A DNA stretch of 64,000 nucleotides from Raillietiella orientalis (taxonomy: Eukaryota). The stretch lies in assembly GCA_036172245.1 (NCBI GenBank), contig JAYWIR010000010.1:1984001-2048000 (forward strand). The letters run 5' to 3'. Numbering within the stretch: position 1 is the stretch's first letter; each line of letters starts with the position of its first letter. The notes beneath the pieces are model-generated. The model was not told the DNA's origin. It ran no database searches and worked only from the letters and a program-made list of their open reading frames with translations. The position numbers were made by a program, and so were the translations under genes. This document shows, in pieces, positions 7,980 through 61,780 of the stretch.

Positions 7980-8350
7980 GGTCGTGTGGGGTCGAGTCGG
8001 ACGCCACCGAGTGGTCGCACTCGATCGGCCTCGTCGCCACCAACGTCTGCGCTCCGAGCAACCCCTGATGGGGTGCCGCTCGAACTCGGTCCTCGCACAG
8101 AGGAAGGAATGGTCAGCCAACACGGGACGCGAGGAGGCGATTTCAACATAAAGTGGGGCGCGTGGGCAGTGGAGAATCAGTTGTGCTCAGCCAGCTTGTT
8201 GGCCGTCCAATCCAAGATGGAGGGCTGCATCGATCGCGTCCACGAGCACTTTTGGTCGTCGAGACCAAAGGTGCTGGTGGGTCGGCAACCGGAGCAGGAT
8301 AAGAAGGACGCCCTCCGACCAAGACTGGATCGGGGCCGGGGTTATTCCAT
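7980..8350 (+). mobile_element. APE endonuclease fragment of an L1-clade element
   Basis: ATNVCAP, GGDFN and RLDR in the correct order across a frameshift (canonical NVYAP, GDFN, RIDR). Confidence 0.7.
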
Positions 8351-8582
8351 TCAATGGGGGCCCTCCTTTGAACCTGAAGCAGCCGATCCCTCAGCAAGAG
8401 GTGAAGCTCCCCGCAGCTTCCTTCGAGGTTTCTCCGTGTAACAGGACAGGGACGAATCAAACTCGTGTTAGAGACTCGACTTGGACTGCCTTCCCGCGGA
8501 GGCGGGGATGCGCTGCGAGCACGCGCACCTCTAGAAGAGAGGACCTTGGTCGCCTGGCAGAGAACAGGGCCAAGGCTGAGCC

Positions 8583-9316
8583 CGCATCAGCGGCCCCGTG
8601 GCTGCAGTCTCTCTGCGCGTGGTAGCAGCCAGTACTGCGGGTTCGAATCCCGACCAGGGAAGGGAAAATCGATGCCAAGAACGGGGGGCGCGTCGTGGGT
8701 TTCGAGTCTCCCCCGAAGGATGACGCCGGTTGACCTCGGTTGGCTTTGAGTGTGTCACAGGTGGGAGCCCGATGCCCAGCGAAGGGATGCCCCCCCACAT
8801 GGGATTAGAAATCGACCCTTCGGGATTTTTCCAGGAACCAAGGAGCCAGTTCCCTTCGAAATTGCCCTCCGCTTGCGAAAATGAAGCCGTGGTGCCATGG
8901 AGATGGTTGATGCCCTCCTCAGGGTTCCAGAAGTGCGCTGCTCCCTCCGGGTAGCGCCCTCCAGAGAAATTGGAAAGCGTCCCTTTGGGGTTCTTTTCAG
9001 AAGAAGAAACAGGGAGCAGGTCCTTTCCCGGGGATCCCTCCGGAAAAGAAATGAGTAGTGATGTCCACTGCGGTTCCTCTGGAGAGAATAAGGAAGAGGT
9101 TCCCTTCGGGGTTCCCTCTTAAGCGTGAAAGAAACGGATTCCTTCCTCCGGAGCCTTCCTGGATCCATGGGGTGTCCCTCCGGGGTTGCCCCTTACAATC
9201 TGAAGGGTGACACGCACCCTGGGGTGGCATGGGTAGCGTCAAAGAGAGTTCCGTGAGCTCCCCCTCTCCCAAGGAGGCGAGAAGTTCTTCAGCATTCCTT
9301 GAGAACCAAAAAAAAA
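8583..9316 (+). mobile_element. tRNA-headed SINE with ~40 bp VNTR, copy 1
   Basis: B box GTTCGAATCC at 8641, second B-like box at ~8698, tandem units at ~8930-9160, tail TTCTTCAGCATTCCTTGAGAACC plus an A-run. At least six homologous copies in the window. Confidence 0.8.
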
Positions 9317-9349
9317 GCTGGAAGGAAAACAGAGAAGCAGAAAAGAACC

Positions 9350-10242
9350 CCAGAGAATTTGCATCGCTCAGTTCTGGAAGCAAGGGACAGAATAATCCCG
9401 GCAAGGTGGGAAGTGACGTGCTGTGTAGCAGCAAAGAAGAAACTTCTGGGCGAGTGGACAACTCGGAAAGGGACAGGCGCTGCGACTCAAAGTGTCCCCA
9501 CCCAAAGGATCTCTCCGCTCGGGCAAGCTTCTGGGAATTCTCCTCGGAACCTGACCCTCAGTGTTGGAGGACAACAGCACCCTCCCTCTTAAGTGACAGG
9601 TTTCGGCGTTGCTGCTGCTGCTGCATTGGGGAATCCCATGCAAAGCGCGACTCCACCGCTGGACGCTAGGGAGTGTGCGGAGTGCGACCGGTTCCTTCAC
9701 TGCACTGCCCCCCGGAAACTGGAGACGTTTCGCAACAGCCCTCCGGGCCCCTGGGAGCAATAGGGGTCAGAAACGTTGCCAGACGCCTCTCCGTGAGCGA
9801 TGCACCTGCCACGAGTCACGTGCGTAGCAACTATGTGTTGCATGCCGAGGCATCCTGAGGGCACGGAACGCCACCAGATGAGGTCAACACGGCAGAGGTG
9901 CCAACCATCGGTGGGAACTCTTTCTGAGGATCGCCTCGAGACAGTCTCATCTAGGAAAAGATAGACACCAGCTTGCCAGCATCCTCCAGAACACGAACGG
10001 AACGTCACGGAACGCACGGTGATTTCTTGCCGACCTCCCAAACAAACATTCTTCATGACCACTTTGTTTGTTTTTATTGTTCTCCCCCCCCTCTCACCCT
10101 CCGTGCTATTCCCGCATCAAACACCTAGCGGCAAGGGGAAAAGAACTTTCTTTGTTCTTCGAACGTGGTAGAACCGAGCGTTCCACCGACAATGTAAATT
10201 ATTTTTTTTCATAATGAATGACCCGGCCAATCCGGGTGAAAA
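9350..10242 (+). mobile_element. L1/Tx1-like LINE family B 3' segment fused to the SINE tail
   Basis: ARDRIIPARWEV...LLHWGIPCKARLHRW...LASIL, followed by the hairpin 3' UTR ending CCCGGCCAATCCGGGTGAAAA. Confidence 0.75.
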
Positions 10243-11059: not shown

Positions 11060-11640
11060 TGGTTGCCCGGTGGAAGCAGGGAATCGTTTCCCGCGCGGGC
11101 GGCGATCCACGACGCGAGCACGGAGCCATCGCACCTCCTGCGGTGTTCCAGTTGCGCCCACTGTTGCTCTCTGAAAGGGATGGCCGAGAACCCCATAGGG
11201 AGCTTGTGGGCAGACAACGTCCCCCTTGCCGCAGAACCTCCCTCCCCAAGGGAGGAAAATGGTAGTTGCCAACCTGATGAGAAGTCTCCTGCGAAATCGC
11301 GTGCAAAAGGAAACCGATTAATCGATGGACAATGGGAAAACTCACCGACTCTGCAACCCCGAGTGCCCCAACCAGTAGATGAATCCTCTGGGCCCAGTTC
11401 CAGGGGATTTCCCCGGAAGAAGTGGTCCTGGTCCGCAGTGTTGATGATGGAACTTGCCGGAATCCTTAAGAGGATGCAGAGGACGCCGAACCACAGCCAG
11501 TGATCCTTTCCGAAGTCTCTCCCTGAAGTCTTTATTATGTTTTTCTTTTTGATTGATTCCCCTTTCTTCTGCGGGCGAGGCGAACCTCTCTGGTCTGCGT
11601 ACCGGCATCCTGGCATGCTCCCCTGGTCATTTTTGGACGT
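11060..11640 (+). mobile_element. LINE family B 3' fragment
   Basis: ARWKQ motif, ORF end ELAGILKRMQRTP, and GGT-CTGCGT-ACC 3' UTR hairpin at 11592-11603. Confidence 0.7.
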
Positions 11641-11969
11641 GTCAGGACCAGGAGTTTCGCCGCCATCTGTTTGTTTCAATAATAAGCGCCTCGGCGTGGC
11701 TGGATGGCAAGTGTGTGCCACCGAGGTACAAAAGTCACCTACCATTTTCTTCACCTCTGCTGAAGCCGAACCTCCCAACAGCAGACATGCAGTCCCAGAT
11801 TGCCGGACCTGTCGTTCAATCCTGGCCTCGTATCCGGCCAGCTTGCGCCTGGAGTGGGTTTCGCTCTTGTAGAAACATGCGGCTGCTCCCGATACCCTCC
11901 TCGAAGCCTCGGTGCAGGAAGTGTGGTGGGATGCTGGACGCAAAACTGCCGGGCAGAGTCCTCAAGTAG

Positions 11970-15369: not shown

Positions 15370-18300
15370 ATGATCGGTTTGGGTGGTCCTGCTGCTATTT
15401 TAGTGCTTAGTAAGTATAAAGAAAGAATCACTTCAAATATTGTTCAAGCTTAATGCATTATTTGTCATTTTGTTTCTCGTGCTATATTGCATAGCCATTT
15501 AAATTTGGCGTCTGTAATGCATGCGTCAGTTTTCCAATAGAGATTGATTACAGCAATCCAAATTTATGAAACTTTCAAATACCATGTTCAGATGTCGTAA
15601 AATAAGTCGTTTTCAATCTATTCGTGTAATCTTAGCATTTGTTGTTTTGCAAACTTGTTACTTTGCAGCTTTTTCCATTGTATGTCATTTAACAATATTT
15701 GTGCTTATTTTGAGGTAGACATTAGATGATTTTGAAAGTGACTATTAAGTTCTCTTTCATTTTATCTTTTGAGAGAATCAATCTAGTGCGTATAATCTCA
15801 AAGCTTAATTCGGAAAGCCACAATTTGTAAGGCATGTTCAGATTTACAAAAGCTCAGGAGGAAGCTGAGCATGCTTCTCAAATTTGTATCCTTTCAGTGT
15901 TATCATACTAGAAGTTGTTTATGCGATGGCCAAGTAAAAGATGTTTGCCTTTCCCAGACTGACAGCATTTGTTGATAATATGGTATTATCCATTGATGCA
16001 AAGAAACTTGCAACTAGTGACAACTGTTCTAATGCTGAAGACTTAATTCTAAGCATAAAGTCAGGAAAATTGTAGCGTGCGACCTTTGAAATTGGATTTG
16101 AATTTTCTTTAATCAGTGATTCCTTCTGATTTTAGTGTCATGTAGGAAAAATTTGTTCTTCACTTAGTTTTGATGGCATCAGCATGTGTTTTCACATTCA
16201 TAAGCTTGTTTGGAATAGTTACCAAGCATTAAGCATTTTTGATTTTTGGGCTTCAAGTTGATAACGCCGCAATTTTTTTGTAAAGTGTTTCTTTATTAAA
16301 TTTTGTTCTGGTGATAGTTTTAAGGAGTTTTGTGTTTATGGTTTTATGCTTGAAAAATACTTTGAGTATCTCTTATATGAAAGTATGCAGTTATATTATG
16401 AAGTTACTATATGACATACATTTGCAGTTTAGTGAAAAATATGAAACATAGGTCTATATTATTCTTTCCCTGTGTTTTGTTCTTGTAAGTTTTTATGTAA
16501 TAGTTGTGGCTTCATGAACTAGAAGCTGTCATTTGAAACATTACAATGATAAAAGTCAGAAGAGAATTAAAAATTAGGGTTTTAGATTATGAATTCATAA
16601 ACATATATCGTGCTTCACTTGGTGGTTATTAAGCATTTGAAAAGAGTAAATCATGGCAGTGCTTTTTATTAATAAAAAAAAAATCCTCTTTACAGGTCAG
16701 AATACTAAACGGGAGAGTGGTAGAACTGTCCAGCTTGGTAATATCAATGCTGGAAAAGTAAGCCTTTAAAAATAATCAGAAAGATATCTAGCAATAATTT
16801 CATCTCAGGCTGTAGCAGATGTGATCCGCAGTTGTTTAGGCCCTCGTGCCATGCTTAAAATGCTTATGGAGCCCACTGGTGGCATTCTCATGACAAACGA
16901 TGGAAATGCGATTCTTAGGGAGATAACTGTACAGCATCCTGCAGCAAAGTCGTTGATTGAAATTTCCAGAACTCAGGATGAGGAGGTAAAGTGTTTTTTT
17001 AAGGTGATAGAATTAATTTGCATTTTCAGGTGGGTGACGGTACAACATCAGTAATTGTGTTAGCTGGCACAATGCTTTCTGCTGCTGAACCATTTCTTTT
17101 AAAAGGAACACACCCAACAGTGATCATTAGGGCATACCGGCAAGCTTTGGAAGATGCAATTGTTCTTCTGAGAGAAAAAATCAGGTAAGGATTTCTTTGT
17201 TAATAATGTTTATGTGTGAAATCCATCCAGCATCCGTGTTAATGCTGATGATGACGAGCAATTATCAAAAGTAGTGCAGGCATGTGTGGGCACCAAGATG
17301 TTTGGTGACTGGTCTGAGTTCACTAGCAGTTTGGCCATCCAGGCAATCCATGCTGCTATTTTGCGAGAAGCTGATGGCAGCATAGATATTGATATAAAAC
17401 GTTCCATTAGAATAGAAATGGTCCCTGGTGGAACAGTAGAAGACTCACGAGTTGTACGAGGTGTAGTGCTCAACAAGGATGTAACTCATCCTAATATGAG
17501 GCGAAAGATCAGCAATCCACGCATTGTGTTATTGGATTGCCCACTTGAGTACAAAAAAGGAGAAAGCATGGTAGAGAATGTGTTCCTTACATTCAGGTTT
17601 CTAACTGTAGGCTTAGACCAATGTTGAGGTATCCACTGAAGATGGTTTTACACGCTTGTTGGAACTGGAGGAGCAGTATGTACACCAGCAGTGTATTGAC
17701 ATTTTGCGTGTCAAACCTGATCTTGTATTCACGGAGAAAGGCATTTCTGATCTTGCTTCTCATGTGCTACTTAAAGGAGGAGTATCTGCTGTACGACGTC
17801 TGAAGAAAACAGACAACAACCGGCTAGCCAGAGCTACTGGTGCCTGTATTGTCAGCCAGACATCTGAATTGCAAGAGAGTGATGTAGGCACACTGGCAAA
17901 GCACTTTGAGATTTCCAAAATTGGTGATGAATCTTACTGTTTTGTAACAGAATGTCAGGGCCCAGGAGCATGTACCATTTTGCTGAGAGGCCCTAGCAAA
18001 GATGTCCTCAAAGAACTCGATCGTAATTTTCATGATGCCCTGCACGTAGCCCGTTGCATCATTTTAGAACCATTTTTGGTCCCTGGTGGAGGAGCTACTG
18101 AAATGGCTGTAGCCCATTTGCTCACAGAAAAAGCTAAGCTGATGACTGGTGTAGAGCAGTGGCCTTATCGTGCAGCAGCTTCAGCACTGGAAGTTATTCC
18201 TTGCACATTAGCACAGAATTGTGGAGTCAATCCTGTGCGAGTTTTGACTGATTTAAGAGCAAAACATGCTGAAGGTGATGTCTACCAAAACTGGGGCATA

Positions 18301-18504
18301 AATGGAGAGACAGGGGAACCTGCTGACATGAAGCAGCTAGCTATTTTTGACCCACTAGCAGTTAAATTGCAAGCTTACAAAACAGCTGTGGAAACTACCA
18401 TTCTGCTTCTACGTATTGATGATATTGTCAGTGGCTCCAAAAAAAAGAAAGGAGATGATGGGGCTAGTCAGCCTGCTCCCCAGCCTCCCCAAGGTGACGA
18501 TTAA
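15370..18504 (+). CDS. CCT3: T-complex protein 1 subunit gamma (CCT3). Exons 15370-15409, 16696-16757, 16809-16985, 17030-17184, 17231-17570, 17617-18504
   Basis: The spliced translation MIGLGGPAAILVL/SQNTKRESGRTVQLGNINAGK/AVADVIRSCLGPRAMLKMLMEPTGGILMTNDGNAILREITVQHPAAKSLIEISRTQDEE/VGDGTTSVIVLAG.../...NKDVTHPNMRRKISNPRIVLLDCPLEYKKGESM/TNVEV...LLLRIDDIVSGSKKKKGDD is collinear with animal CCT3. All five introns are GT..AG and keep the frame. The GDGTT ATP-binding motif is intact. Confidence 0.97.
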
Positions 18505-26620: not shown

Positions 26621-28274
26621 ACCCTTGAGAATCACAGCCTCGTCACAAGAGCGAGTTGAAGAGGACAAACAGACAGAGGAGACGGCAGTCAAGATTTGCC
26701 ATTTGTCTTCACCTTCCTTTCTTGACACGGATGCATCCGCAGCGAAAATGAAAGAATGGCGTTTCAGCGCACTTGAAATAAGTCGGTCGTCTTGGTCCCT
26801 CTTCGCTCATCTGGAGCCACTCAAGGGAAAGTGCTTTTGGAATGGCAGTCTCTAAACAACACTTTCAGAAACCGCCATGAGAATGATGTTGAGACGGAAG
26901 CAGGGGCTGCCGCTTCTCACGAGTCCTTGAAGAGGGAGCGAGGAGGAACACCCCTCGCTCCAGCAAATTCATCTGCTACATCCGTGCCAGACGTGCGGGA
27001 GGTGCCCCTTGCTCTGCGATCACTCTTCGAATTGACTTTCAAGAACCCTTACGGCGCTTTCCCGCAAACTCATGCTCCAGCCTGATGACGCATCCCGTCA
27101 TAACGGATTCTTCTGTGAGCCCTTTCAGTGACAGTTGGCACTATGGCTCCATGCTAGGATTATTGATCAAGCACCCACGTGGGAATCCAATGACTGGGTA
27201 ATTCTTCCCCGCACTGTTCTTGACTTGTTTCACCCTGAGCGGCTCCCGGTACGTCTCTGATGCCGCTCTGTACCACGAAGGCCTCTAAGGGATGCAGCTC
27301 GGAGGTTTTTTTGAGGCTCATCCCATGGTTTATCTCGATCGGTTTGGCTTAGTGGCTCGCTGGAAACGTGCACCGAAAAGTAAAGAGAGCCATCTGTCTT
27401 CCTGATCAGCATCCAGCCGGAGATGACCCGGTTCACGTGCAGATCAAAGAGGGAGGGTGGCACGAGCTATAGAAACTGAAAAAAAAAAGAAAAAAAGCTG
27501 ACCAGGAGCTGGCAAACTGTGGATGGGATGCGAGGGTCTTTGTGATACGACGAGCACCTCCAGCTAGGGAGTTCATCCGATCTCCCTTTTCATCTGCAGT
27601 GGTGGTGTCTACAGTGGTGGTGTCTGCTCTCCTTCTGCCTCGCTTCTTCCATCGCTCTGGAGACTGTCATGTATCTCAAACCACATTTAGGACGTGAAGG
27701 GGTCGAATGGAGAGAAGATGGAGTTTATCATGATCATTTGGTGTTTGATTGATTTGGTGTATCAAAGGTTCTCTTCCCCTGGAGAGCCAAATCCCGGTCT
27801 CAGTCTAGAGTCTATTTCTGGGATGAGCCAGTCCCCAGTTTCCATCGTTTCCAAGGCAGCTCCCGAAGGGATCTGCTTTGCATTTTCTCCGAGTTGTTCG
27901 ATTATCATCGTTTGGTGGCTACAGGTGCAGCGATCGACGATGCGACGTTGGGACCATCCTCCTCCCCTATTCCATACCTGCACCTTCGGTCGGCTCCGTC
28001 CTTGAGGAATGCAGCCAGCCGGCTCGGGGTCGTTTCTGCTGCTCTCGACTGCAATCTCTTTTCCAGTCCAAAGAGAGCAGGAGCTTTCCCGGAGTCCGCA
28101 TCCTCGGTTTCAATACGATGCGCGCAAGCAGCAGCATCCGGATCCAAGGACGCTCTCTGCTTCGTCCGGGAGCAGCGCGTTTCCAAATCTCCCCCGTCGG
28201 CGTTCCACTTTGACGGATCCACAGCTGCCCGATTTCACACCCTCTCAAAGACACCTGGACTCGCACTGGATGAC

Positions 28275-29165
28275 TATCACCCGGTTATGATTATAAATAC
28301 ATTTGCGTGGTAGAACACGTGGTTCTACCACGTGCATGAACCTGCCGAAGAGCGGTACGCAGACTGGCGAGATCCGCTTCGGCAGCGTGGGGGAGGGGAA
28401 AACACACACACAAAAAAATAAATACACAAAAACAGGGGAGAGGAAATTTTACACGGGGAGGGAGGGGAGAACCGAGGAAGGGATCGTCATACGCGGAGGC
28501 GTCCTCTGCATCCTGTCCAGGATGCTGGCAAGTTCCGTTGTTTGTTCACCCGCGTGGAGTCATCTCGACGCGGTCCTCAGGAAGATCCACGCCCAGTGGA
28601 TGGCGTTCCCGTCATTTCGGCCCCTTTTTCTGGAGTTCCAGACCACCGCCATCCCGCGGAGACAGGAGGAGGGAACTGCAAGGAATGCAGCTGGCGGCGG
28701 CAGTGCGGCGCGCACGAAGAGGCGTCTGAAAATGTGCCTGGGGCCGCCCACCGGCATTCCTAGGATCGTGGCGAGGCGATCCGAAAGGGATCGGAGGGCA
28801 TCACAGTCCAGCAGAAGGTGCGGGAGGGTCTCCATCTTCCCGCACCTGTCCCACTTTGCACCCGCCCTCCCCCCGCGTCCAGCGGTGAAGGCACGCTTTG
28901 CACGGGATTCCCCCATGCACCACTAGCAACGACGACTCCTGCCACTCGAGGGGGAGGGCGGCACTGTTCCAGAAGGCTGAGGACTGCTTCACCTCCTCCG
29001 GAGGAATGTCGAGCAGCAGCTCTCCCCACTCGGGGTCGCATCACCCGTCACTTCCCGAGTTGTTCACGCCCCCAGGGAAGTTTCTTCTTTGCTGCTATGC
29101 GGTAAGTCACTTCCCACCTTGCCGGGATCACGCTGTCTCTTGCGTCCAGAGCTGGATGATGGAAT
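28275..29165 (-). mobile_element. LINE family B 3' segment fused to the SINE tail
   Basis: ARDSVIPARWEV, CGKMETLPHLLLDC, ELASILDRMQRTP and the 3' UTR hairpins. Confidence 0.8.
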
Positions 29166-29194
29166 TGGGGTTCTTCTGTTTCTGCTGCTTTCCT

Positions 29195-29935
29195 TTCAGC
29201 TTTTTCATCAAGTGCTGAAGAGCCACTCACTGCCTTATGGGGGCTCACGGAGCTCTCTTTGACGCTGTCCACGCCACCAGGGAGTGCGTGCCACTCTTCG
29301 AGTTATACGGGGTACCCCTTGAAGGGACCATCTTGCCAGAATCCGGGAAGGCTCCGGAGGAAAGGAGTCTGCGCCTCTTACGCTTGGGAGGCAACCCCGG
29401 AGGGGCCACTCGTTTCTTCTCCAGTGGGAATCCGGAAGGGATCCTCTCTTAGAATTTCTTCTCCTGAGGGAACTTGCAAGGAAACCTCTCCCTGTTCTCT
29501 CCTTTGAAGAGAATCCCAAAGAAACACTCTCCAATTTCTCTGGAGGGAGCAGAGCGCTTCTGACACTCTGGAGGGATCCACCAGCTCCATAGCACGAGAT
29601 TAAGGTACGCTGTTGGAGGGTCCCATCCGAGAGGAGCGGACTGCTCCGTTTGCGTAACAGGAGGGAAACCCCGAAGGGCTCCTTGGATTCTCGAAGGACT
29701 CTGGAGGGTCATCTTCCAAATCCCAGCCAGTCAACGGGGCACCTGGAGGTTTCGGGCTTCCGCCAGTGCCTCACCCGGAGCCTACAAGCCAACCAGCGTC
29801 ACCCTGCGGAGGGACTCAAAACCAGTGATGCACCCCGCATTCTCGACATCAATCCTTTCTTCCCCGGGCAAGATTCGAACCCGCAGCTCTTGGCACCACT
29901 CATGGAGACCTTGGTCACACGGCCACCAACTCTAG
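29195..29935 (-). mobile_element. VNTR SINE copy 3
   Basis: Head TGGCCGTGTG..GGGTTCGAATC, VNTR at ~29350-29560 and the conserved tail. Confidence 0.8.
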
Positions 29936-34509: not shown

Positions 34510-34990
34510 CTACGTACTGCGTCACCACTTCCGACGGCGCCTCACGCCGGCCGCATCCCTAGCATCAGTTTGCTGCCTACGCAGGATCGTAGCTTCATGG
34601 AGCAACGCCAGATGAGGCCAAAACGACAGGGACGCCATCTATTGTGATGCCCTCTTCATGAGGACAGCGTCAAGATGGGCCCATCTGGGAGTCCTGAAAC
34701 AGAAACTTGCCGGCATCCTTACAAGGATGCAGAGGACAACCTCCAGCACACAGCGATCCCTTTCCGAAGCCCCCTTCCCCCCATTTTTTGACTGTATGTT
34801 TTTTGTTCTTTTTCTTTTTGTTTGCCTCCCCTTCCCCTGTGCTGCCGAGGCGAAACCCGCTGACCTGCGCGCCAGTTCCCGGCAAGTCCCTTCCCTCAGT
34901 CACAAGTAACGTGGCAGGATTAAACGTTCTGCCACAGACATGGATGTTTATTTCTTATAAATAAACGCTCCGGCGTGACCGGGTGTCAAC
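34510..34990 (+). mobile_element. LINE family B 3' fragment
   Basis: KQKLAGILTRMQRT plus the full four-hairpin 3' UTR. Confidence 0.8.
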
Positions 34991-42345: not shown

Positions 42346-42684
42346 TTTTTTTTCGGACTGGTTTCTGGGAAGCGTGAGAAGGAACGGCAGGGATTCCTCC
42401 GCGTTATGAGTTGTCGATTGCCTCCGCGTTGCTGATGCCTCCCTGGTGAGCGAAATGCGAGTCCGCTCCGGTGGCAGGGGCCTCCAGAAAGGGATGCTCC
42501 CTGCGTCGGACAGCAACCGTGCCTTCAGACCATTTCTTGTACACCGGCGATCGCCTGCACTTCTCTGACCGACGCTTTGTTCGTGCTGCCTCCTTCAGTC
42601 GACTGCTCGTGCGAATGGGTCCTGCAGGAAATACCGCGGACCCAATATGCAGGATGTGCTCCATATGGAAAGAGTTCATCCAGC

Positions 42685-43330
42685 CTTTTTTTCTTCCTTT
42701 GGGGTTCTTTTTTCTTGGTTCTCAAGGAGTGCTGAAGAACCGTTCGCCTCCTTCGGGTGGGGGAGGGGGACACGAAGCTATTTGATGTCGTCCGCATCAC
42801 CCTATAGTGCGTGTGACTCTTCAAGTTGTTGGGAGCAACCCTGGAGGCATGAATGCCACAGTATGAATCCAGGGGGGCTCCGAAGGAAGGAATCTATTCT
42901 TCTTACTTTCGGGAGGCAACCCCGAAGGAAGCTCTCGCCCTGTTTTTTTCCGGAGGGATCCCGATGGAAATCCCTTTCTCGTTCTCTCCTGAAGGAGTTC
43001 CCAGTGGAGACTACTCCATTATTTCCCTCCCCGAAGGGAACCCGAAAAGGATCCTCTCCTGATTTCCTCCTCTTCTGAAGAGAACCCTAAAGAGGCGCTC
43101 CCCAATTTCTCTGGAGGGCGTTCCCCGAAGGGAGCAGCACGCTTCTTAGCACTCTGGAGTGGCAATCCATCATCCAGGTCCATGGTACGCAATGGAAGGC
43201 GGCTCCAGTTTCATAACCAGGGGAACGTCTCCTTGACTCCTGGGAGGATCCCAGGGGGGCCACTTCCGATCCCGACCTCATGACGGGGTCATCCGGGAGT
43301 TTCCGGCCTCCACCAGTGCCGCACCTTACG
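42685..43330 (-). mobile_element. VNTR SINE copy 5, interrupted by a LINE (remnant resumes at 44215-44240)
   Basis: Tail with poly(T) on +, about 7 VNTR units at 42880-43140, body up to ACCAGTGCCGCACC at 43312. Confidence 0.8.
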
Positions 43331-44214
43331 GCTAGATGGGAGGTTACTGTGGAAATCTCCGGAAGGAGAAGAGGGCTGGGCGAGTGGACGACGAACCAGC
43401 TCACCGACGCTGCGAACCCGAGTGCTAGACTTTATGGACTTTTGCTCTGGGGCGTGCTACTGGGTATTTCGGGGGAAGACCTGCAATGGTTCTCATGAAC
43501 ACTCTCACCCTCCCCTTAAAGTGGCAGGAGTAGGCATTGAGGCTGCTTCACTGGGGCCTTCCGTGAAACGCCCGCCGTCATCACTAGACTCAGGTGTGTG
43601 TGGACCCGAGCTGCGTCAGGTGCAGGGAACATGAATCCTTCCCGCAGCTCCTTGTTGGACTGTGTTGCCCTCCTGCCCCTTTAGGAACGCTTTGCCGTGA
43701 CCCTTGGAATCCCCGGCGGCAACTCCAGAGACGTTCTGAAGCGCTTCTTCCTGCGCGACGCCCTCATGACGTCAGGCCGCGTCCCTAGCAGCACTTTGCT
43801 GCCTACGCGGGATCGTGGCTACATGAAGCAGCAACGCCAGAGGCCGCCAGGACGACAGAGACGCCATCTATTGTGTTGTTCTCTTCATGAGGACAGCGTC
43901 AAGATGGTCCCATTTGGGAGTCTTGAAACAGGAACTTACCGGCATCCTTACAAGGATGTGGACAACACCCTTAGCACACAATTATCCCTTCCTGAACCCC
44001 TCCCCCCTTTTTGACTGAGTGTACGTTTTTCGTTTTATTTTGTTTCTTTTTGTTTGTCTCTTCTTACCCTGTGCTGCCGAGGCGAACCCCGCTGGCCCGA
44101 GTGCCAGTTCCCGCCAGGTTCCTCCACGTAGTTATAAGTAACGTGGCAGGATCAAACGTCCTGTCACAGACGTTTATTTTTTATAAGTAAACGCCCTGGC
44201 GTGACCGGATGTCA
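43330..44214 (+). mobile_element. LINE family B 5'-truncated copy
   Basis: ARWEV..GLGEWTT start, degenerate CCHC, ORF end and full 3' UTR. Confidence 0.8.
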
Positions 44215-44669
44215 ACCAGCACTGTACTCGAAGCCAACCGAGCGAACGGAGCTGTAGCTCCAGTTTTGGACACTTTCCCTCGTGGCAACCTGTGGAGCAC
44301 CTCCTGATGACAACCTGCACGTCTTGGGCAGGCGTCAGCAACGATGAAAGTCCTTCGCTGCCGGTGCAATGCTGCAGCAACATGAGCGCGGGGACGCATC
44401 ACGGAGTCATCCTTAAGTTGGTACAAAGTGCATCCGGAACTGCACTTGCAGTCCGATCCTCTCCAGCGTCGGGATGCCTAAGCCGGCATCCTGACGCGGA
44501 GCCTCCTAGTCCTTAGGGAGAATGCTGGACCTCAGCAGGCGTTACTCCCGGAACTTGGCCAAGTAGCAGGACCGACAAACAAAAAAAGAGGGGTGGAGGA
44601 GGGAGCAAAGAAGGTGTACTAAACGGAGGCTTGCTCCGGCAAGACGAACTTGCCACCTTGGAACGGTCT

Positions 44670-44800
44670 GAGAGCACTCTGTGCCTTCGAAGGCAGTCCG
44701 ATCACGCTTTTTCTGGACTGAAGTCGCCCAACGGAACGCCGAGGTACATCAAGCACCTGTCCATGAGGATTCCCACGCGGATCCAGTCAAACTGCCTCTC
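44670..44800 (-). mobile_element. RT domain 7 fragment
   Basis: DRCLMYLGVPLG, homologous to 7230-7400. Confidence 0.6.
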
Positions 44801-44804
44801 GACC

Positions 44805-45366
44805 CAAACTGTGCAAGGGGAGCGGGAATCCCTCCCTCACCTCCTAGTGAACTGCATTGCCCTCCATCCCCCTTAGGGACCTTTTCCGCGACCCTTGGAA
44901 CCCCCCGGTGGCAAGGCCAGAGATGTGATGCAGCCAGCCGCAGCTCTTGCAGCACTTTGCTGCCTTCGTGGGATCGTGACGGGGCGGAACGAAGCCAATG
45001 GAGGAGCCAACGACAGGGACGCCACCCACTTCTCTCTCCGCTTTTTACGGATAGCAGTTAGATGGCCCCACCTGGATAATAACATCAAACAAGACCTTGC
45101 CGGCATCTTCCAAAGGATGCAGAAGACCGCCCCCAGCCGGCTGTGATCCTTCCCCTAACTCCCGAAAATTGTTTTATTTTTGTTTTGTTTATTTTTCTCT
45201 TTGTTTGACCCTTCCCCTCTGCTGTTGTGGTAGTCCTCACCGGTCTGCGAACCGGTAACACAGCAGGGTATCTACAGAAAGGACGTGGTTAGACCACAGG
45301 TCCAGCCACGAAAATCGGATATGTCTATTTTATTTCAAAGAAACGATCTGGCGAACCTGGGTGAAA
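44805..45366 (+). mobile_element. LINE family B (divergent subfamily) 3' fragment
   Basis: ESLPHLLVNC and KQDLAGIFQRMQKT, with a variant 3' UTR. Confidence 0.8.
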
Positions 45367-45560
45367 ACCAGTGCCTCTGCACCCGAATAGGCCAACCAGT
45401 GTCATCCTTCCGGGAGGGCACTCGAAACCCACAACGCACTCACATTTGTTCTGAAACCGATCCCCACGTGGGGATTCGAACCCGGAACTCCTGGTGCCAC
45501 AAGCGGAGGTCGCAGGACAGCACGACGCGCCAACGCGGACAACTGCCCTGGACGCGAGTC
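45367..45560 (-). repeat. SINE head (tRNA-like)
   Basis: Minus strand CTCCGCTTGTGGCACCAGGAGTTCCGGGTTCGAATCCCC...GATGACACTGGTTGGCCT. Confidence 0.75.
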
Positions 45561-46199: not shown

Positions 46200-47338
46200 C
46201 AAAGACACCAGCTCGAGGCGATGTGACCTTCAGCTGCGTGAAGTGGTTGCCTTGGTGGAGGAGAACACCTGGATCTCCTGCCTGCCCGAGAAATGCACTG
46301 CCCGGCTCCAGGAGGAAAGGTCCACGGCGAGGCGGGATACAACCGCCTCCGGAAAGGAAGATACCCTCGACAGCCGCTGCAGGGGATCGCTTGCGACCTA
46401 TGCAAGCTGCTGTGGGTATCATTAACCCCCCTTGCCCCAGTGCTGACCTCCCTAAGAAAAGCAAGGGACAGCGACCTTCCGGCAAGGAGGGAAGTGTCCA
46501 GCTGCATTGCAGGAAAAAAAGAAAATGATAAGTGCGTGAATAGCTCGGCAGGCCACAGACAGGGCGACACCGAGCGTCCCTCCGAAAGAACTTTGAAGCT
46601 GGGGCGAGCTGCTCGCAATCCCTCCGGAGGAGGTAAAGTGACCCCAACATGCTGGAACAGTGCCACCCTCCCCCTCGAGTGGCAGGAGTCGTCGTTGCTA
46701 GTGGTGCATGGGGGAATCCCGCGCAAAGCGTGGCTTCACCGCTGGACGCGGGGGGAGGGCGGGTGCAAAGTGGGACAGGTGCGGGAAGATGGAGACCCTC
46801 CCGCACCTTCTGCTGGACTGTGATGCCCTCCGATCCCTTTCGGATCGCCTCGCCACGATCCTAGGAATGCCGGTGGGCGGCCCCAGGCACATTTTCAGAC
46901 GCCTCTTCGTGCGCGCCGCACTGCCGCCGCCAGCTGCATTCCTTGCAGTTCCCTCCTCCTGTCTCCGCGGGATGGCGGTGGTCTGGAACTCCAGAAAAAG
47001 AGGCCGAAATGACGGGAACGCCATCCACTGGGCGTGGATCTTCCTGAGGACCGCGTCGAGATGACTCCACGCGGGTGAACAAACAACGGAACTTGTCAGC
47101 ATCCTGGACAGGATGCAGAGGACACCTCAGCGTATGGTGATCCCTTCCACGTCCACCGCTCCTCTAGAAAGATCCCCCCCCCTTTTTTTTCGGTTTCTCT
47201 TCGCCCTCCGCCGCGGCAATGGACCTCGCCGGTTCTGCGTACCGGTGGTGGCAAGTTCACTCACGTGGTCTACCACTCTATTGTATTGACTTTATTGTTA
47301 TTTTAACAATGAACGCCCTTGAAGAACTGAGTGAAAAA
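46200..47338 (+). mobile_element. LINE family B, longer 3' fragment
   Basis: LPLEWQESSLLVVHGGIP, CGKMETLPHLLLDC and the 3' UTR with CTGCGT loop at 47235. Confidence 0.8.
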
Positions 47339-48129: not shown

Positions 48130-48930
48130 CTCCGACCGTTGCGAAGTCGGTCTGCGGTCTCCACGCACGGTAATAAGGGTCGTGGGTTCGAGTCCCTCCC
48201 GGGGAAGGATCGACGCCAAGGATGGGAGGTGCGTCGTTAGTTTCGAGTCCCCTTCACCCCATCCTCAGGATGACGCTGGTTGACCTCGGTTGGCTCCGGG
48301 TGCAACACTGGTGGAAGCCGAAAAACCCTGGGTTTCCCCGCTGACTGGTCAGGATTTGGAAGTTGACCTCCGAGGTCCTTAGAGAAGTCAAGGAGCTCTT
48401 CGGGGCTCTTCGGTTGTGAAACTGCAGCTGTCCTCCATTGCGTACGAAGGAGCTAGTTGAATCCCCTTCGGGAGTTGCCTTCCCAGTGTCAGAAGTGCGC
48501 CGCTCCCTTTGCGGAGCGTCCCTTCAGGGTTCTCTTCAGAGCCGAAGGAAACAGGAGAAAGTCCTTTCCGGTGGATCCCTCCTAAGAAGAAATCCAGGAA
48601 CGGATCCTTTCCGGGTTCCTTTCAGAAAGGAAATAATGAAGCGGCCCTCCTTCCGGGGGATCCCTTTGGAAACAACCAGGGCGAGGATCCCCTTCGGGGT
48701 TTTCCCTCTTAAAAGTAAGAGGAACGAACTCCGTTCCTCCAGAACCTTCCTGGATTCATGGAGTGGTCCTCTCCTGAAGTACCCTCCTAACTTGAAGAGC
48801 GACTCGCACCCTCAGGTCACGTGGACAGCGTCAAAATGAGCTTCGTGACCCCTTCCCCCCCTTCAAGCAGGCGAGCGGTTCTTCAGCATTCCTTGAAAGC
48901 CAGAAAAAGAGAACCCAAGAAAAAAAAAAA
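48130..48930 (+). mobile_element. VNTR SINE copy 6 (near full length)
   Basis: GGGTTCGAGTCCC B box, VNTR at ~48500-48740, tail and A-run. Confidence 0.8.
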
Positions 48931-48937
48931 GCTGGAT

Positions 48938-49420
48938 CGACACCAGGTTGCTCCGGGGCGTTTATTTATAGAAAAATAAACATACAGGTCAGTGGCAGGG
49001 CGCTTGGTCCTGCCAAAATGTTGCCATGGGAGTCTGCTAGAACCGCCACGCAGGTCGGCGAGGTTCACCTCGGCAGCAGAGGGGAGGAAGGCCAAACAAA
49101 AAAAAAAAAAAAAAAAAACAGACTGTCAAAAAAATGGGGGGCTTCGGGAAGGGATCACTGTGTACTAGGGGGTGTCCTTCTCATCCTTGTAAGGATGCCG
49201 TCAAGTTCCTGTTTTCAAGACTCCCAGATGGTGCTATCTTGACGCTGTCCTCATCAAGAGGACAGCAAAATAGATGGCGTCTCTGTCTTCTGGAGGCCTC
49301 CTCTGGCGTTGCTGCTTCATGTAGCCAGCGTAGGCAGCAAAGTGCTGCTAGGGATGCTGCAGGTGTGAGGGAGTCGTACAGGAAGAGGCGCTTCAGGATG
49401 CTTCTGGAGTTTCCACAGGG
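48938..49420 (-). mobile_element. LINE family B 3' fragment, tail-to-tail with SINE copy 6
   Basis: AASLAALCCL and the ORF end, plus the 3' UTR on the minus strand. Confidence 0.75.
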
Positions 49421-56545: not shown

Positions 56546-58659
56546 TCGTCCTTGCTTCAGTCGTTTTCTTATTTTCCACCGCATCATAGGAACGGAGTGA
56601 TGCTGAGTTTTGCGTCTGAGGAATCGAAAGATCGCAACAGAGGGCTCTGTTTGCTGCTCTCAAAATACGATTGCTTTGTCGGGCCGAGTCGGGCTACGCA
56701 CCTTGTCGAAGTCCACCGACTGACCGGCGAACGTCACGTCTCCCCTTTCCAGTTCGGAAGTCCGAGAGGGCAAAAACGCCGGATTTCCCCAGTACCAGTC
56801 TCCCCTAGTGATGACGCTCCCTCGATGTTCCGCTGATGTTCTGGGCGCGGGGGGTTCGGGGGAGGATCTGCCGAATCCTCATGCGTGGAAAGGGCAAGGG
56901 ATGCTGGAGAAGGACAGTTTCTGCTCGAAATCTGCAGCGAAGAGGCGTTTCGTCCCAATCGCTCATCGCCACGCCACGCCGCGCCTCAGCTTCCCGGAGT
57001 CCGGCGCACGGTGAGCCAAAACGAAGAGAGGAACGCGTGGAATGCGTGCGTGGGGAAGAACGAAAAAAACGAACCCTCGTTGGAAGTGGACGGCTTTCCG
57101 GTGGCCACAGGCCGAGCGTGCTGTGCTGAACCAGGCTGCTCCTGCAAAAACTCTTGCATGGCCGGATGTTGCATTCGCCTGTACCTGCTCGTGGAAGGGA
57201 TTTCGTCGCCTGTTTCAGGAAAATCGTTCTCTTCTGGATCTCAAGCGATCCGTGGGCCGCAGTAACCCTGGACCCTGATGCGAGTGAGGGTGGGGTATCA
57301 ACACGTGTCAAGCTGCCGAGCCTCGGTCCACAGAAAGGGGACGAGTCTTTATGAGTGGCTGCCCTGATGATGTCGGGACGGGATGGCATCCGGCGACCGG
57401 AGTTGCTGCAGGATTTCCATGGAGATGCGAGCCGTCATTCCAGGCGCGGCATGCGAAAAGCCCCAGAACGTTCGGGATGGCTCCGGAGGCCATGAGAGGC
57501 CAAGGGAGGCCAGAAGAACAGGGGAGCGACTCTCCAGCTGACCTCCAAACGGATCCGGGAATCAGTGTGCACGTCATCCGGACGAGATCAAGTGGGCTCA
57601 TGGGATTCGGGAAACGAGTACTTCTCAGTCAAAGAAGAACAAACGGTGCAAGCCGACGTGGAGTCAAGAGAAGCGCATCTTGTGCAAAGGACCTCGAGTC
57701 GATACCCCCGTTCTCTCCACCGCCTTTCGGTACCCAAAGGAGCCCGCCCCTTCTTCCACATCGCCCCTACCCAGTCGGATGCCCCTGTGGATGCCTTCCT
57801 CCCTCACTCTGCATGTAGGCCACTTCGGCCTTCCCTAGCAACCGAGTCAGGCTGAGTCCTACTCCCCTGTTGTGGGCAGGTCGTTGTCTTTCCCTGCTTC
57901 TGGATTCTCGATAGCAGTCAAGGGACACCCCGAGTGGAGCCGTTCTGCGCACAGTAGCGAGGAAGGGAACCCGGGTCATCGCGCTCGACGAAAGCTGCCC
58001 GTCTGGAGGCACCGCGCCAGCATCCAGAAAGGAGCGTGGGCGGATGGTTCCTGTTCGCGTTTGCAAGCGATAGCTGGGTCCGATGACCAGGGGATCTTCC
58101 GCCACCTCGCACGACCTTCCATCACAATCGAGGCGGCTAGCACCTCAGCAGGTGGCCCAAGCTGTGCTTCCAATGAACCTTTCCCAGAGCAGCACGTTGG
58201 GGCACGCCGCATCCTTCCTTCCTGCTGGGCGCCAGACCCATCCCTTAGGGATGCTCAGATCCATTCTCATCCGTCGCTTTACAAGCCCCGTTGTCCTGGG
58301 GAACCAGCGACGATCGCTCTGACGGATGCTGGCGCGGAGAAGTGGGGAGTCCGTCCTCTTTGCCTTCCTTCGCCTCGCTTCTTCTGCAGAAAGCCCGTAG
58401 GAGCAAACAGCTCCGCTCCTCCTGCTTTCCTGTCGCCCTGGAGCGCCTACCGAACCAGGAAACAGTTCTGATCCGGTTCCGGGAACGTTTTTTTTTTTTT
58501 TTTATGAGGCCAGTAGCGCGACCTCAGGGGGAGATCGTCACCATGGGCCTAGGATCGACGGAATCCTTCTGGGTTCTTTTCCGCTCCCTCCGTTTTCCTT
58601 TCAGTTTTTTTTTTTTTTTTTCTGGGGTGGGGTGGGGTGGGGGGGGGGGAAGAAGGGTC

Positions 58660-59128
58660 CTTTATTTTGGTTCGTTAAGTGCTGAAGAACCGTTCGCCTT
58701 AGGGCTCACGAAGCTCTTTGACGCTGTTGTACGCCACCCGAGGGTGCGTGCGTGTTAACTCTTCAAGTTATGGGGGCTGCCTTGGGAGAAGACCACCCTA
58801 TGAATCCAGGAAGGCTCCGGCGAAAGGGATCCCTTCTCTTACGATTGGCAGGGGACCCTCCACCCTGATTGCCTTCGAATGGGACCCTGAGGGAAGATCC
58901 TTTTCCTTATTTTTTCCGTAGGGACCCTCAGGAGAGACCGCTCCACCGTTTCTTCTTCGAAGGGAACCCTAAAAGGATCCGCTTTTGAATTTCTCCTCTG
59001 GAGGGACCCCCCGGAAAGGATCCGCTCCCCGTTATCCCTCCGAAGAGAACCCCAAAGGGTCGCTTTCTAATTTCTCTCTAGGGGGCTCCCCGAAGGGAGT
59101 AGCGCACTTCACACTCTAGAGAGGTATC
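58660..59128 (-). mobile_element. VNTR SINE copy 7, body and tail (head at 59691-59832)
   Basis: The clearest VNTR, 38-41 bp units at ~58880-59100, plus the conserved tail. Confidence 0.8.
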
Positions 59129-59690
59129 CCCTCCCGCACCTGCTTGTGGATTCTGTTGCACTCCGGTCCCCTCTGGGAGCTCTTTGCCGCGACCCTAGGA
59201 ACCCCGGCGGCAAATCCAGGGACACATGGAGACCCTCCCTCGTACGTGACGCCCTTCGGCCGGCAGCCTCGCTAGCAGCTCTCTGCTGCCTGTGTGGGAT
59301 TATAGCTGCCGGCCTGGCGCCACGCAAGAGGAGAACGGAACGACAGGGATGCCACATCCACTTCGCTTCATGAGGATGGCAATAACACGGCTGTACTTGG
59401 ATCATATGCAGCGTGAACTTGCCAGCGTTCTCGAAAGGATGCAGAGGACCGCCCTCAGCAGAACGTGACCCCTTCCCGAATGCCTCCCCCCTTTTTTGAC
59501 TGTATCTTTTGTTTTATATTTTTCTTTTTGTTTTTCTCTCCTACACCTGTGCTGCCGAGGTGACCCCGCTGGCCGGCGTGCCAGTTCCCGGCAGGTTCCT
59601 TCTCGTAGTTATAAGTAACGTGGTAGGATCAAACGTCCTGCCACAGACATTTATTTTTTATAAATAAACGCCCCGGAGTGATCGGGTGTC
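59129..59690 (+). mobile_element. LINE family B 3' fragment inside SINE copy 7
   Basis: LPHLLVD...ELASVLERMQRT and the full 3' UTR. Confidence 0.8.
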
Positions 59691-59832
59691 AACCAGTGCT
59701 ATAGCATCCGAATAGGCCGACCGACTTCATCTTGCGGGGGGAACTCGAAACCCACGATGCACCCCCATTTCTCTGGCGTCGATCTCCCACGTGAGAATTC
59801 GAACCCGCAACACTTGACACTCGCCAGCGCGG
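59691..59832 (-). repeat. SINE head of copy 7
   Basis: Minus strand GCGGGTTCGAATTC...GTGGGTTTCGAGTTCCCCCCGC. Confidence 0.75.
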
Positions 59833-60696
59833 ACAAAAAACGGGTTGATTAGAGGCTGCCAACTCCCATCTTTCTTGAGCAGTGCCCTTCATCTGAGCTA
59901 GCAGTTTATCCTGTTTCTCGATGGCCGGATATATACTTCAGTCACTACAGTCAAGGGACGCTTCTCCTTCCTTGTATCTCTTGCATACGGGTTCAGCCCC
60001 ATTTCTGGTATGCGCGGCATGATGCTTTTGATGCCTGTGGACCAGTTTACAATCGGAGAGTCTTGCATTTTCGCTGGTGGACGGGGATGATGCCCCAAGG
60101 CACGATGTTATTCCAAATAACACGTGGTCTTCTCCTGGACGGGGCTCTTTTCCACGAGGGGGAGCCGTTGGAAGGGGGAGTCCTGGCTTGACCTTTCCAC
60201 CATCAGGAGGAACCCAAGGGTGAGTTCGCACGATATCCCTCGGGCTTATAGGAATGTTGAGGTACCGAGGACGACAACCCTTGGAAAGAGCTTGAAGAAC
60301 GTATGCGAATTGGCTCAGTGTGATGGCGGACGCGTTAGCTGGGGCATCAGTCAAATGACCGGGGCACAAACCTACCTAGTCGAGTTGTCTAAAGAACACG
60401 GACCTTCAGACCTGCGCGACCACGACGAAACTTGAGAGAACATGTGTGGTCCAACAGAGAATATCCCAGTGGCAAAGGAAAGGTGGGGATTCGAACCACA
60501 GCCGTCGCCTACGTCAGGCAGCATTCCCACTTCAGTCTGGAACCTCCACCCTAGAGCATCCATCACGAGCCAGCTCTCCTCCGGCATCGAGGAGGCTGAC
60601 CAAGCTGAGGAAACGAGGGTGCTTCCTCCCTTTTGCCTGAGATCAACTCCAAACCACCCAAGTCGTGCTTCCGACCCCGTGTATTGAAGCTGTTTC

Positions 60697-61780
60697 CCAC
60701 CCGGGTGCTCCGGGGAGTTTATTACTAAACTATCCGGGAACAGAGTTCCTGGACAAAGGAGACAGAAAAAACGAAGGGAGGGATCCCCGACACGCAGGTC
60801 GGTAAACCGAAAGTCCGGAAGGGGAGGGAGGGGACCACCAATGCTTATATAAAAAATATAAATAAAGATATGGGGAGGGGAGGGGACAGGGGTCTTGACT
60901 TTGGCCGTTCCTTTCCTTCAGAACTGGCGTTGTATGCCGGAGATCTCGCTCCTCACTTCTTCCGGAAGATGGACCCACTTGGCAGCCGACGTCATGTTCT
61001 CGTCGGCTATTCCGGTGGCCTGTCGGCGAATCGCCAGCTTCTCCAGCTCTCGGTGGGCCTTGGGCCAGCTCTCGATGGCGCGGGTGCAACAGACAGTTGC
61101 AATAACAGCACCTAAGGACAGACCGCCTGGCGTGAAGAAGCGGCACATCTCTTGCGGTGTCCCCCTGGTGCAGGAGAGCTGAGGCCAGCCTCCGCCATAG
61201 TCCTTGGAGGACAGCGCAGTCCAAAAGCCGGTGAGGAAGCGTTTCCACTTCTCCACACCTTTTGCAGTTCGGGGAGGCAACTCCCCCGGAAACAAGGTCC
61301 GTGCGCCGGTTGCGATGGAAACTCCAATGCACCAGCATGATGACGTCCTGCTTCCACGAAAGGGGGAACGCAGAAGTGTTCGAGCACGAGGGAGGGACCA
61401 CAAGTTCTTCGGGGGGCACACTCAAGAGTTCGTTCCACCGAAGGAGTCCCTTCTAGATGTTGCGAGGCATGGCGGCGTCTGCCAGCTCGCTAGTCCTCCA
61501 GCCGCCCATGGGTCGGGTTGCTCCTGCGATGGTGCAGGCGACCTCCCACCTCGCCGGTAGGCGGGGTGGGAGGTCATCACTTGTCCTGAGGAATGACAGC
61601 GCGTCGGCGAGGGGCGTGACGGCCAGGCGAGTCCACTTCTCCTGGTTGTTCATCCGTACAGTACGGAGAGAGATTGACTCAGCGGAGTTCCAAAAGTAGG
61701 TGTCTTGCAGCTGTTGTGCTGGCCTTCTGTCAGCGCCTTGAGTCTCGGAGCCTCTTCGATGGAGATGAGAATCTCTCAAA
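60697..61780 (-). mobile_element. LINE family A 5'-truncated copy
   Basis: LPARWEV, FPLSWKQD, CKRCGEVETLPHRLLDC, EEVRSEISGIQRQF* and the 3' UTR hairpins. Confidence 0.85.

Follow-up and report, generated by a model that had tools for sequence, protein, structure and literature searches.

What leads three LINE (long interspersed nuclear element) 3' ends in one 64,000-nt stretch of the Raillietiella orientalis genome, our reference window, to stop at the same nucleotide of another repeat? At window positions 44214, 45366 and 59691 the LINE sequence is followed by ACCAG(C/T) and by the reverse complement of a dispersed repeat that we term X, and these three main junctions are as the original prediction had described them. 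That prediction proposed that a LINE of L1/Tx1 type inserts independently, at one site and in one orientation, into a tRNA-headed repeat resembling a SINE (short interspersed nuclear element), and our searches of the 210-Mb assembly bore this out genome-wide. The LINEs involved appear from their sequences to be three related, now dead families of the L1 group, here named B1, B2 and B3. We think it probable that they were autonomous elements inserting by target-primed reverse transcription (TPRT), with the ORF2 protein (ORF2p) reading a sequence that X carries at two places.

The evidence is strongest for B1. A genome search with a B1 3' end stopping short of the junction gave 1013 candidates; the best 40 were scored and all 40 examined, so that the sample was chosen by likeness to one copy, and two of its loci are the window's own. 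X was located with nhmmer and a model of X, whose positions are quoted below for individual copies. At 35 of the 40 best-matching 3' ends B1 lay antisense at a single nucleotide of X (site 1). This count comprises 32 loci at which the model placed the X head directly after the LINE end (three of them, L016, L025 and L170, with an eroded LINE end or site), L001, which the coordinate cut-off of the model count had missed and which was added separately, and L008 and L020, where site 1 is followed by another LINE piece; the remaining five loci were off target. The X body was found upstream of the 5' truncation in 28 of the 40, with LINE lengths of 316–3761 bp, and the two junctions shared 10–18 bp from ACCAG onward wherever they could be scored. 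In LINE orientation the site reads GCTTCC/ACCAGTGC (31 loci; the slash marks the insertion or nick point here and below), and the first position of the right flank was A in 34/34 B1 ends, including ends whose left copy has C or T there. The same site is used by B3 in 15 of the 30 loci examined (from 40 hits among 740 candidates; 14 by model and L086 by eye), eight of which have X on both sides. By the criterion of PMC4494074, a LINE is target-specific when more than 20% of its flanks are of one type, and B1 and B3 are target-specific in this sense.

Two further counts set this preference against the genome. The exact B1 terminus followed by AC matched 234 times genome-wide, 115 of these continuing with CAGYG, and reversed-pattern controls matched 0 times. 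As CAGYG is exactly preserved in only 15 of 29 known on-target loci, most of the 234 ends are probably on target and the true share probably lies far above 49%, although these five letters alone do not prove X. In a background sample of 20 regions of 10 kb (200 kb, taken at round coordinates on contigs C1–C11) X occupied 5915 bp, or 3%; nine copies spanned site 1 and one of them was filled by B1. With nine such copies in 200 kb, each insertion has a chance of about 1.6e-4 of landing within 3 bp of site 1 in one orientation. Random flanks genome-wide, one of two outcomes named in advance as speaking against the original prediction, were not seen. X is dispensable repeat DNA making up 3% of the sample, as might suit random insertion followed by selection sparing copies inside X, but such a process cannot produce one base and one orientation per family; because of this base-level precision we regard it as refuted and give it practically no credence.

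In the window, the first two junctions belong to a stack of LINE pieces, laid out as follows.

42677–43311, minus strand: X body ('family A'), the portion 3' of site 1 in the sense of X (model positions 161–777 at 42677–43325, nhmmer).
43312–43325, plus strand: left-hand target-site duplication at site 1, with CTCC before it (from sequence).
43326–44214, plus strand: 5'-truncated B1 with ORF2 C-terminus, 3' untranslated region (UTR), AATAAA-like signal and terminal GC hairpin, without poly(A); 78–80% identical to long B1 copies through their 3' end, B1 model score 323.7.
44215–44240, plus strand: the other copy of site 1, antisense X over about 26 bp (from sequence).
44240–44325, plus strand: B1/B3 ORF2 fragment from about 1320–1230 bp before the 3' end (82.6% identity to B3, 81.8% to B1), possibly the 5' end of the B3 copy.
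44332–44800, minus strand: fragment of a related LINE, family C, interrupting the stack (70.6% to the intact copy L147).
44801–45366, plus strand: 3' part of B3 (74–77% to B3 copies, 64–67% to B1 over longer matches; tree).
45367–45541, minus strand: X head, from site 1 to the X 5' end (model positions 4–173).
45472–45482, minus strand: B-box-like GGTTCGAATCC within the X head (from sequence).

The decayed repeat that had been read as a target-site duplication, ACCAGTGCCGCACC (43312–43325) against ACCAGCACTGTACT (44215–44228), is identical at 9/14 positions, and all five mismatches are transitions. The stack was otherwise laid out differently from first thought. Rather than two whole SINEs around 43312–45560, 42677–45541 holds one X body and one X head enclosing the LINE pieces; past 44215 only about 26 bp of X remain before the LINE fragment, the antisense family C piece and the B3 copy. 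This arrangement could have arisen through two LINEs entering a single X, or through a deletion that fused two filled copies. The LINE ending at 45366, taken for a 3' UTR variant of the same family, falls in the tree with B3, the sister family of B1. Other X copies and B elements of the window are listed next.

58546–59128, minus strand: second X copy, body, lacking about 150 bp beside the LINE 5' end (model positions 311–827).
59129–59691, plus strand: B1 copy at site 1 (from sequence and B1 comparison).
59692–59827, minus strand: head of the X copy filled by that B1 (X model and sequence).
29154–29932, minus strand: X copy with site 1 empty and site 2 filled (model positions 9–821).
28273–29150, minus strand: B2 occupying site 2 of that X copy in sense, with a 9-bp duplication (locus L091).
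48150–48937, plus strand: X copy with site 1 empty (model positions 28–788).
48938–49420, minus strand: B1, antisense in X, at a different CCAG after the A-run of X.
34540–34988, plus strand: B1 outside X (off target), with ACCACTT at 34524 and 34989.
8579–9370, plus strand: X copy with site 1 empty and a B2-like sense fragment (9381–9664) at site 2.

As predicted, X resumes at 59128 after a deletion of about 150 bp (model positions 161–310). The end at 34988 is a fourth B1 end of the window, outside X. Two further LINE ends had been said to abut antisense SINEs: at 10242 X begins about 85 bp further on, at 10328, and at 48938 B1 does lie antisense in X, at another CCAG of X and not at site 1. 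Nor do the ends at 28275 and 48938 share one ATCCAG site, since the former is B2, in sense to X, at a second site. The original prediction had overlooked that a third family uses this second site of the same repeat. Elsewhere in the window, more hairpin-ended LINE families occur at 9919–10242, 11441–11708, 47038–47337, 6732–7067 and 60373–61002, and 17220–18504 holds nearly intron-free TCP-1/cpn60 chaperonin reading frames, presumably CCT-gamma-like, inside an AT-rich island.

The repeat that receives these LINEs is about 850–930 bp long with a fixed 5' start (alignment of 21 empty copies), and 1587 candidates were found genome-wide. The first 76 nt of the majority head fold as a tRNA cloverleaf (ARAGORN, 85% threshold); at the lowered threshold a tRNA was called in 20/70 heads against 0/70 controls, and a B box was present in 51/70. 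At default scan thresholds X gave no tRNA, and it had no Rfam match. The 3' end of complete copies comprises a hairpin, a run of T and an A-rich stretch. Among 29 distinct near-full copies one convincing duplication was found, an A-rich 18-mer (L034), and a short-end test found none. Dispersed, in many copies and with a fixed 5' end, X has the sequence characters of a tRNA-headed, SINE-like repeat. Most copies are empty at site 1, which was filled in 4/30 in one count and in 1/9 in the 200-kb sample.

Several other identities for X were tried and rejected. An origin from 7SL, U1 or U4 RNA found no support, the X model having no match on the genome's own genes for these RNAs; the 7SL gene itself is L121 (C7:953877–954173, 238.8 bits), accompanied by three weaker copies. 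A strongly folded X RNA found no support either (z-scores −2.0, −0.5 and +0.1 for three copies, 12 shuffles each). The arrangement is not a long terminal repeat with a tRNA primer site, as the upstream part encodes an L1-type ORF2 end and most X copies are empty. It is not the LINE's own 5' UTR either: besides the empty copies, intact relatives start with other sequence. Model positions 374–609 of X lie within the 3' UTR of a LINE of the sister group described below (L136, oriented positions 1660–1943 and 8799–9082, and L135), where an X copy matches at 72.7% over 414 nt; the X body may thus derive from, or have been captured by, that LINE. Many X copies stop just past site 2 and continue into unrelated sequence (L093, L105, L116, L118, L120, L176 and others). 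The same stop is seen before a B2 insertion, and the duplication there includes the unrelated sequence.

It had also been suggested that the LINE mobilises the SINE on which it lands. The X terminus does not share the 3' hairpin of the B LINE ends, and the LINE target core was found at 4/60 X 5' flanks against 1–6 in control windows, which is no excess. The motif TTTAAAA, one of seven tried, occurred at 5/60 flanks against 0–2 in controls, a weak and post hoc signal. With neither motif excess nor duplication we rejected the B LINEs as mobilisers of X; its status as a passenger of these LINEs is unsupported, and X is better described as an abundant, dispensable landing pad.

Could the pattern at site 1 descend from one or a few ancestral LINE–X chimeras that spread as a unit, through X-promoter retrotransposition, duplication or gene conversion, and were trimmed later? 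X on both sides, differing 5' truncations and duplications together indicate independent insertions: the many truncation points each join X at one base, with a duplication there, and two LINE families share the site. Distances among LINEs and among their hosts were uncorrelated (Mantel r −0.12 raw and 0.00 centred; n=19, three near-duplicates dropped). At 21 loci the LINE 3' ends were 0.11 from their majority sequence, a value biased low by hit selection, and the surrounding X copies 0.24, as expected were the LINE younger than its host. In the star-like host tree, filled copies are scattered among empty ones (16 changes against a shuffled mean of 16.0), most X copies being empty at site 1. 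Variants common to both copies of the duplication numbered 9/44 at positions 2–12 (permutation mean 4.1, p 0.016). On the other side, neighbouring loci with differing 5' ends carry near-identical LINE 3' parts (L010/L016 98.5%, L019/L024 98.9%, L004/L007 96%), showing local conversion or duplication, and an approximately unbiased (AU) test does not reject a single clade of filled hosts (p 0.099). A single ancestral chimera, the other outcome named as adverse to the original prediction, was not seen, although the host-copy tree is too poorly resolved for a formal rejection of one clade. For site 1 we consider such descent largely refuted and very improbable: local conversion or duplication occurs yet does not explain the pattern. 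As a separate observation, LINE pieces 96–99% identical, tens of kb apart and with other ends or flanks, recur at window 28473–29017 and 46608–47151, in L010/L016, in L019/L024 and in L004/L005/L007, which suggests frequent local gene conversion among LINE pieces.

At the second site, family B2 was sampled from 536 candidates, with 30 of 40 hits examined. X in sense lay directly upstream of B2 and ended at the same point in 25/30 (26 by model; L112, whose hit was 6.5 kb away, was dropped), so that B2 too is target-specific by the criterion of PMC4494074. In the LINE orientation this site reads ATTTCC/ATCATCC, and duplications measured 4–17 bp (each scored at 17 of the 25 loci). Sites 1 and 2 share the core TTCC/AYCA; cross-use was nevertheless 0/70 for B1 and B3 together and 0/30 for B2, using patterns anchored on the site motifs, both of which also occur in the X majority sequence.

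An X followed by B2 could instead be a template-switch chimera like those of U6 and L1, the reverse transcriptase (RT) having jumped from B2 RNA to an X RNA ending in CATCATC. Many X copies upstream of B2 are full length, the terminal hairpin of X follows B2 in only 7/30, and many LINE-free X copies also end there: 23 X ends at loci not picked for B2 were followed by a sense LINE piece in 7, the terminal hairpin in 5, an antisense piece in 1 and other sequence in 10. Against this, X flanks B2 on both sides at five loci (L094, L101, L108, L109 and L117), and duplications spanning the X/B2 joint reach into locus-specific sequence at others, among them L093 (11 bp), L105 (15 bp) and L116 (11 bp). 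No duplication joins the X 5' flank to site-2 sequence (15 copies, p 0.40), and the two sites have their core in common. True insertion is less well supported here than at site 1, and the short duplications and the minority of loci with an X remainder leave template switching possible for part of B2; as the explanation of B2 we think it doubtful.

The LINEs themselves point to the L1 group. Before the junctions lies an ORF2 C-terminus with a Cys/His motif, then a T-rich UTR, AATAAA, a CCCCGG-loop-CCGGG hairpin and TG-NN-A(A); poly(A) is absent. L1 ends in poly(A). Variable 5' truncation with target-site duplication, the marks of TPRT, was found. Trees placed B1 and B3 as sisters (100/100) with B2 apart; in the DNA tree B1 and B3 adjoin L150 and L149, and B2 falls with L143/144. 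The same terminal hairpin is present in the intact copies L149, L150, L143/144 and L146–148, and none of these eight hairpin-ended relatives adjoins X. Decayed B copies are 36–52% identical to four of them (frameshifted tblastn pieces). The ORF2 of L149 matched Exo_endo_phos and RVT_1 above the cut-off and zf-RVT below it, and among PDB entries human L1 ORF2p was best both by sequence (E 3e-46; next RT 6e-15) and by fold. Database relatives are about 25–36% identical, except two fragments at 74% and 66%; no named Tx1 protein was among these matches. In the RT tree the genome's LINE families form their own long branch. The predicted L1/Tx1 placement accordingly holds for the L1 group, to which the endonuclease and RT belong; membership of Tx1 in the narrow sense is conjectural. 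L149 (C83:296441–306440) was itself found antisense in another LINE's ORF2 at CACC/AGCAGTGCCG, in one copy only, and its flank after the junction resembles X site 1 at 9/10 positions.

To find relatives, we listed 150 endonuclease matches and fetched 20 with long frames. These include a second intact LINE group, sister to the hairpin-ended group (Shimodaira–Hasegawa-like approximate likelihood ratio test support 99, one clade), located in U1 and U4 small nuclear RNA (snRNA) genes. Several of these LINEs stand in tandem near contig ends. The flanks over the Rfam cut-off are as follows.

U1 snRNA: L135 at 522–687 and 7593–7755; L137 at 2090–2252 and 7620–7782.
U4 snRNA: L141 at 2258–2399 and 7995–8132; L151 at 2043–2181.

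Our literature search found no paper on Tx1 elements targeting both U1 and U4. The endonucleases of these LINEs share a further feature. In all 17 intact ones measured, 39–43 residues separate the GDFN and IDH motifs; the database median is 63 (115 scorable of 174 proteins, 7 of the 115 having fewer than 50). The B3 and B2 copies, though decayed, align to the short form; no B1 endonuclease was seen. In the L1 endonuclease this region holds a hairpin that probes the DNA groove (PMC1950540). A structure model of L149 ORF2 (mean predicted local distance difference test, pLDDT, 74.5) cannot tell loss of the hairpin from loss of a connector, because pLDDT falls below 50 at residues 190–203 and 215–226.

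Taken together, these observations are most probably explained by an ORF2p reading a DNA sequence that X happens to carry twice. The first nick would cut the strand opposite the LINE at T/GGAA, within CTGGT/GGAA at site 1 and GATGAT/GGAA at site 2. The T exposed in this way could then base-pair with the A that ends the LINE RNA, a transcript that would stop just after the GC hairpin without poly(A), and a second nick 10–18 nt away would yield the duplication. We infer the nick positions and the priming from where the duplications begin and end, together with the standard TPRT model. Each duplication restores the target, which allows LINEs to stack. Because the core is short and occurs too often to account for the preference, either about 11 bp or more is read, or X adds a tether.

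Such a tether is central to a two-step alternative, in which RNA polymerase III (Pol III) factors, chromatin or DNA structure bring ORF1p and ORF2p to X and the endonuclease, recognizing roughly YC/AYC, picks the base. Site 1 lies about 107 bp downstream of the B box, within the 40–150 bp window described for Dictyostelium TRE3 (PMC5911963); the short core is common outside X, off-target insertions keep the core only, and the endonuclease is short in its hairpin region. However, insertion is base-exact despite a 53-bp spread of B-box distances: over 23 loci (excluding four eroded ones and any that lacked a motif match) the distance was 89–142 bp (standard deviation 12), with offset 0 in 23/23 in a search allowing only a few bases. 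Site 2, used by another family, lies about 750 bp from the B box, and the two same-core sites of one repeat show no cross-use. TRE3, as described in PMC5911963, inserts in sense over a window, against antisense at one base for B1 and B3, and U1 and U4, targets of the relatives, are Pol II genes (PMC4494074). We consider two-step targeting rather unlikely.

Several observations count against direct reading by ORF2p, the account that we favor. Seven of the 40 B1 loci belong to three near-identical sets, in a sample selected by resemblance to a single copy. The host tree, in which the AU test did not reject a single clade of B1 hosts, is uninformative, with 31/44 branches open, and at positions 2–10 the variants common to both duplication copies fall to 5/36 (p 0.21). 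Indels between site 1 and the B box may postdate insertion, empty copies being equally variable in this distance (76–114 bp, n=16), and the narrow search qualifies the constant offset. B2 duplications are mostly short (4–7 bp in 11/17), and the infrequent X hairpin after B2 was counted with a lenient match. No intact copy of B1, B2 or B3 was seen, and the protein features come from relatives and two decayed copies. Deleting the loop in the L1 endonuclease lowers activity and alters specificity (PMC1950540), which makes a highly specific short endonuclease surprising. In the 200-kb sample CCACCAG occurs three times in X and 24 times outside it, and TTCCACCAGTG with one mismatch four times in X and three times outside. 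Off-target sites match the long site poorly, so that reading of a long sequence is an inference only. In favor of direct reading, four off-target B1 copies have duplications of 10–17 bp and keep part of the core (6–10 of 18 positions). We rejected the idea that off-target B1 and B3 sites are coding motifs of other LINEs, as their flanks held no ORF except in the stacked L008 and the eroded L083.

A broader reading, which we advance tentatively and think rather improbable, is that L1-like LINEs forming a whole lineage-specific clade, all with a trimmed endonuclease, have divided small-RNA-type repeats among themselves as targets (the two SINE sites, U1, U4 and the relatives' coding motifs), with specificity set outside the endonuclease hairpin. 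It might be set by another ORF2p surface or by recruitment through the SINE's Pol III machinery or RNA. If true, this would be a new targeting mechanism and would reverse the usual dependence of SINEs on LINEs.

The closest precedent is that of the crocodilian Tx1-Mar LINEs (Kojima 2015, PMC4494074), which, with SINEU, insert in Mariner-N4_AMi. There too, several related LINE families whose endonuclease is of the apurinic/apyrimidinic type (APE) prefer one abundant non-autonomous repeat, two hot spots are used according to family (antisense at ~240 and sense at ~830), and independence was argued from 5'-truncated copies. Their host is a DNA transposon, whereas ours is a tRNA-headed SINE-like repeat; our two sites share TTCC/AYCA, whereas that paper reports no similarity between its two regions; and insertion here is base-exact with a short endonuclease, the class being fixed to the L1 group only. 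Sequence specificity is also described there for Tx1L in Tx1D of Xenopus and Keno in U2 snRNA genes, APE-type LINEs with multicopy targets like the present families and their relatives in U1 and U4 genes, from which ours differ in the class of target, the shortened endonuclease and the hairpin terminus that lacks poly(A).

Human LINE-1 ORF2p (PDB 8sxt, 8uw3) likewise has an APE endonuclease, an RT and a C-terminal Cys/His motif, and its insertions show 5' truncation and 10–18 bp duplications. L1 nicks T-tract/A junctions (PMC1950540); the families described here instead use a GC-rich site, end in a hairpin and have GDFN and IDH about 20 residues closer together. Dictyostelium TRE3, of the L1 group, lands downstream of B boxes (PMC5911963), and with TRE5 it offers a tRNA-gene-targeted parallel in which an L1-type element lies at a similar distance from a Pol III B box. 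By that account their insertion is position-specific over a window and guided by host factors, whereas the B families use one base, antisense at site 1, and have a second site far from the B box.

No SINE was named as a LINE target in the literature searched, a scope that left outside Repbase reports, subscription journals, the 2004 survey of Kojima and Fujiwara and supplementary figures S3–S6 of PMC4494074, whose per-family targets may name SINEs. The habit is known for some LINEs, and it is the landing pad that is unusual: these data extend the range of LINE targets to a tRNA-derived SINE. They also provide a natural series of related endonucleases with differing base-exact targets and a 7-of-9 core in common, in a genome where the ORF2s of relatives are intact. 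How an APE-type LINE reads a long target with its specificity loop shortened thereby becomes directly testable.

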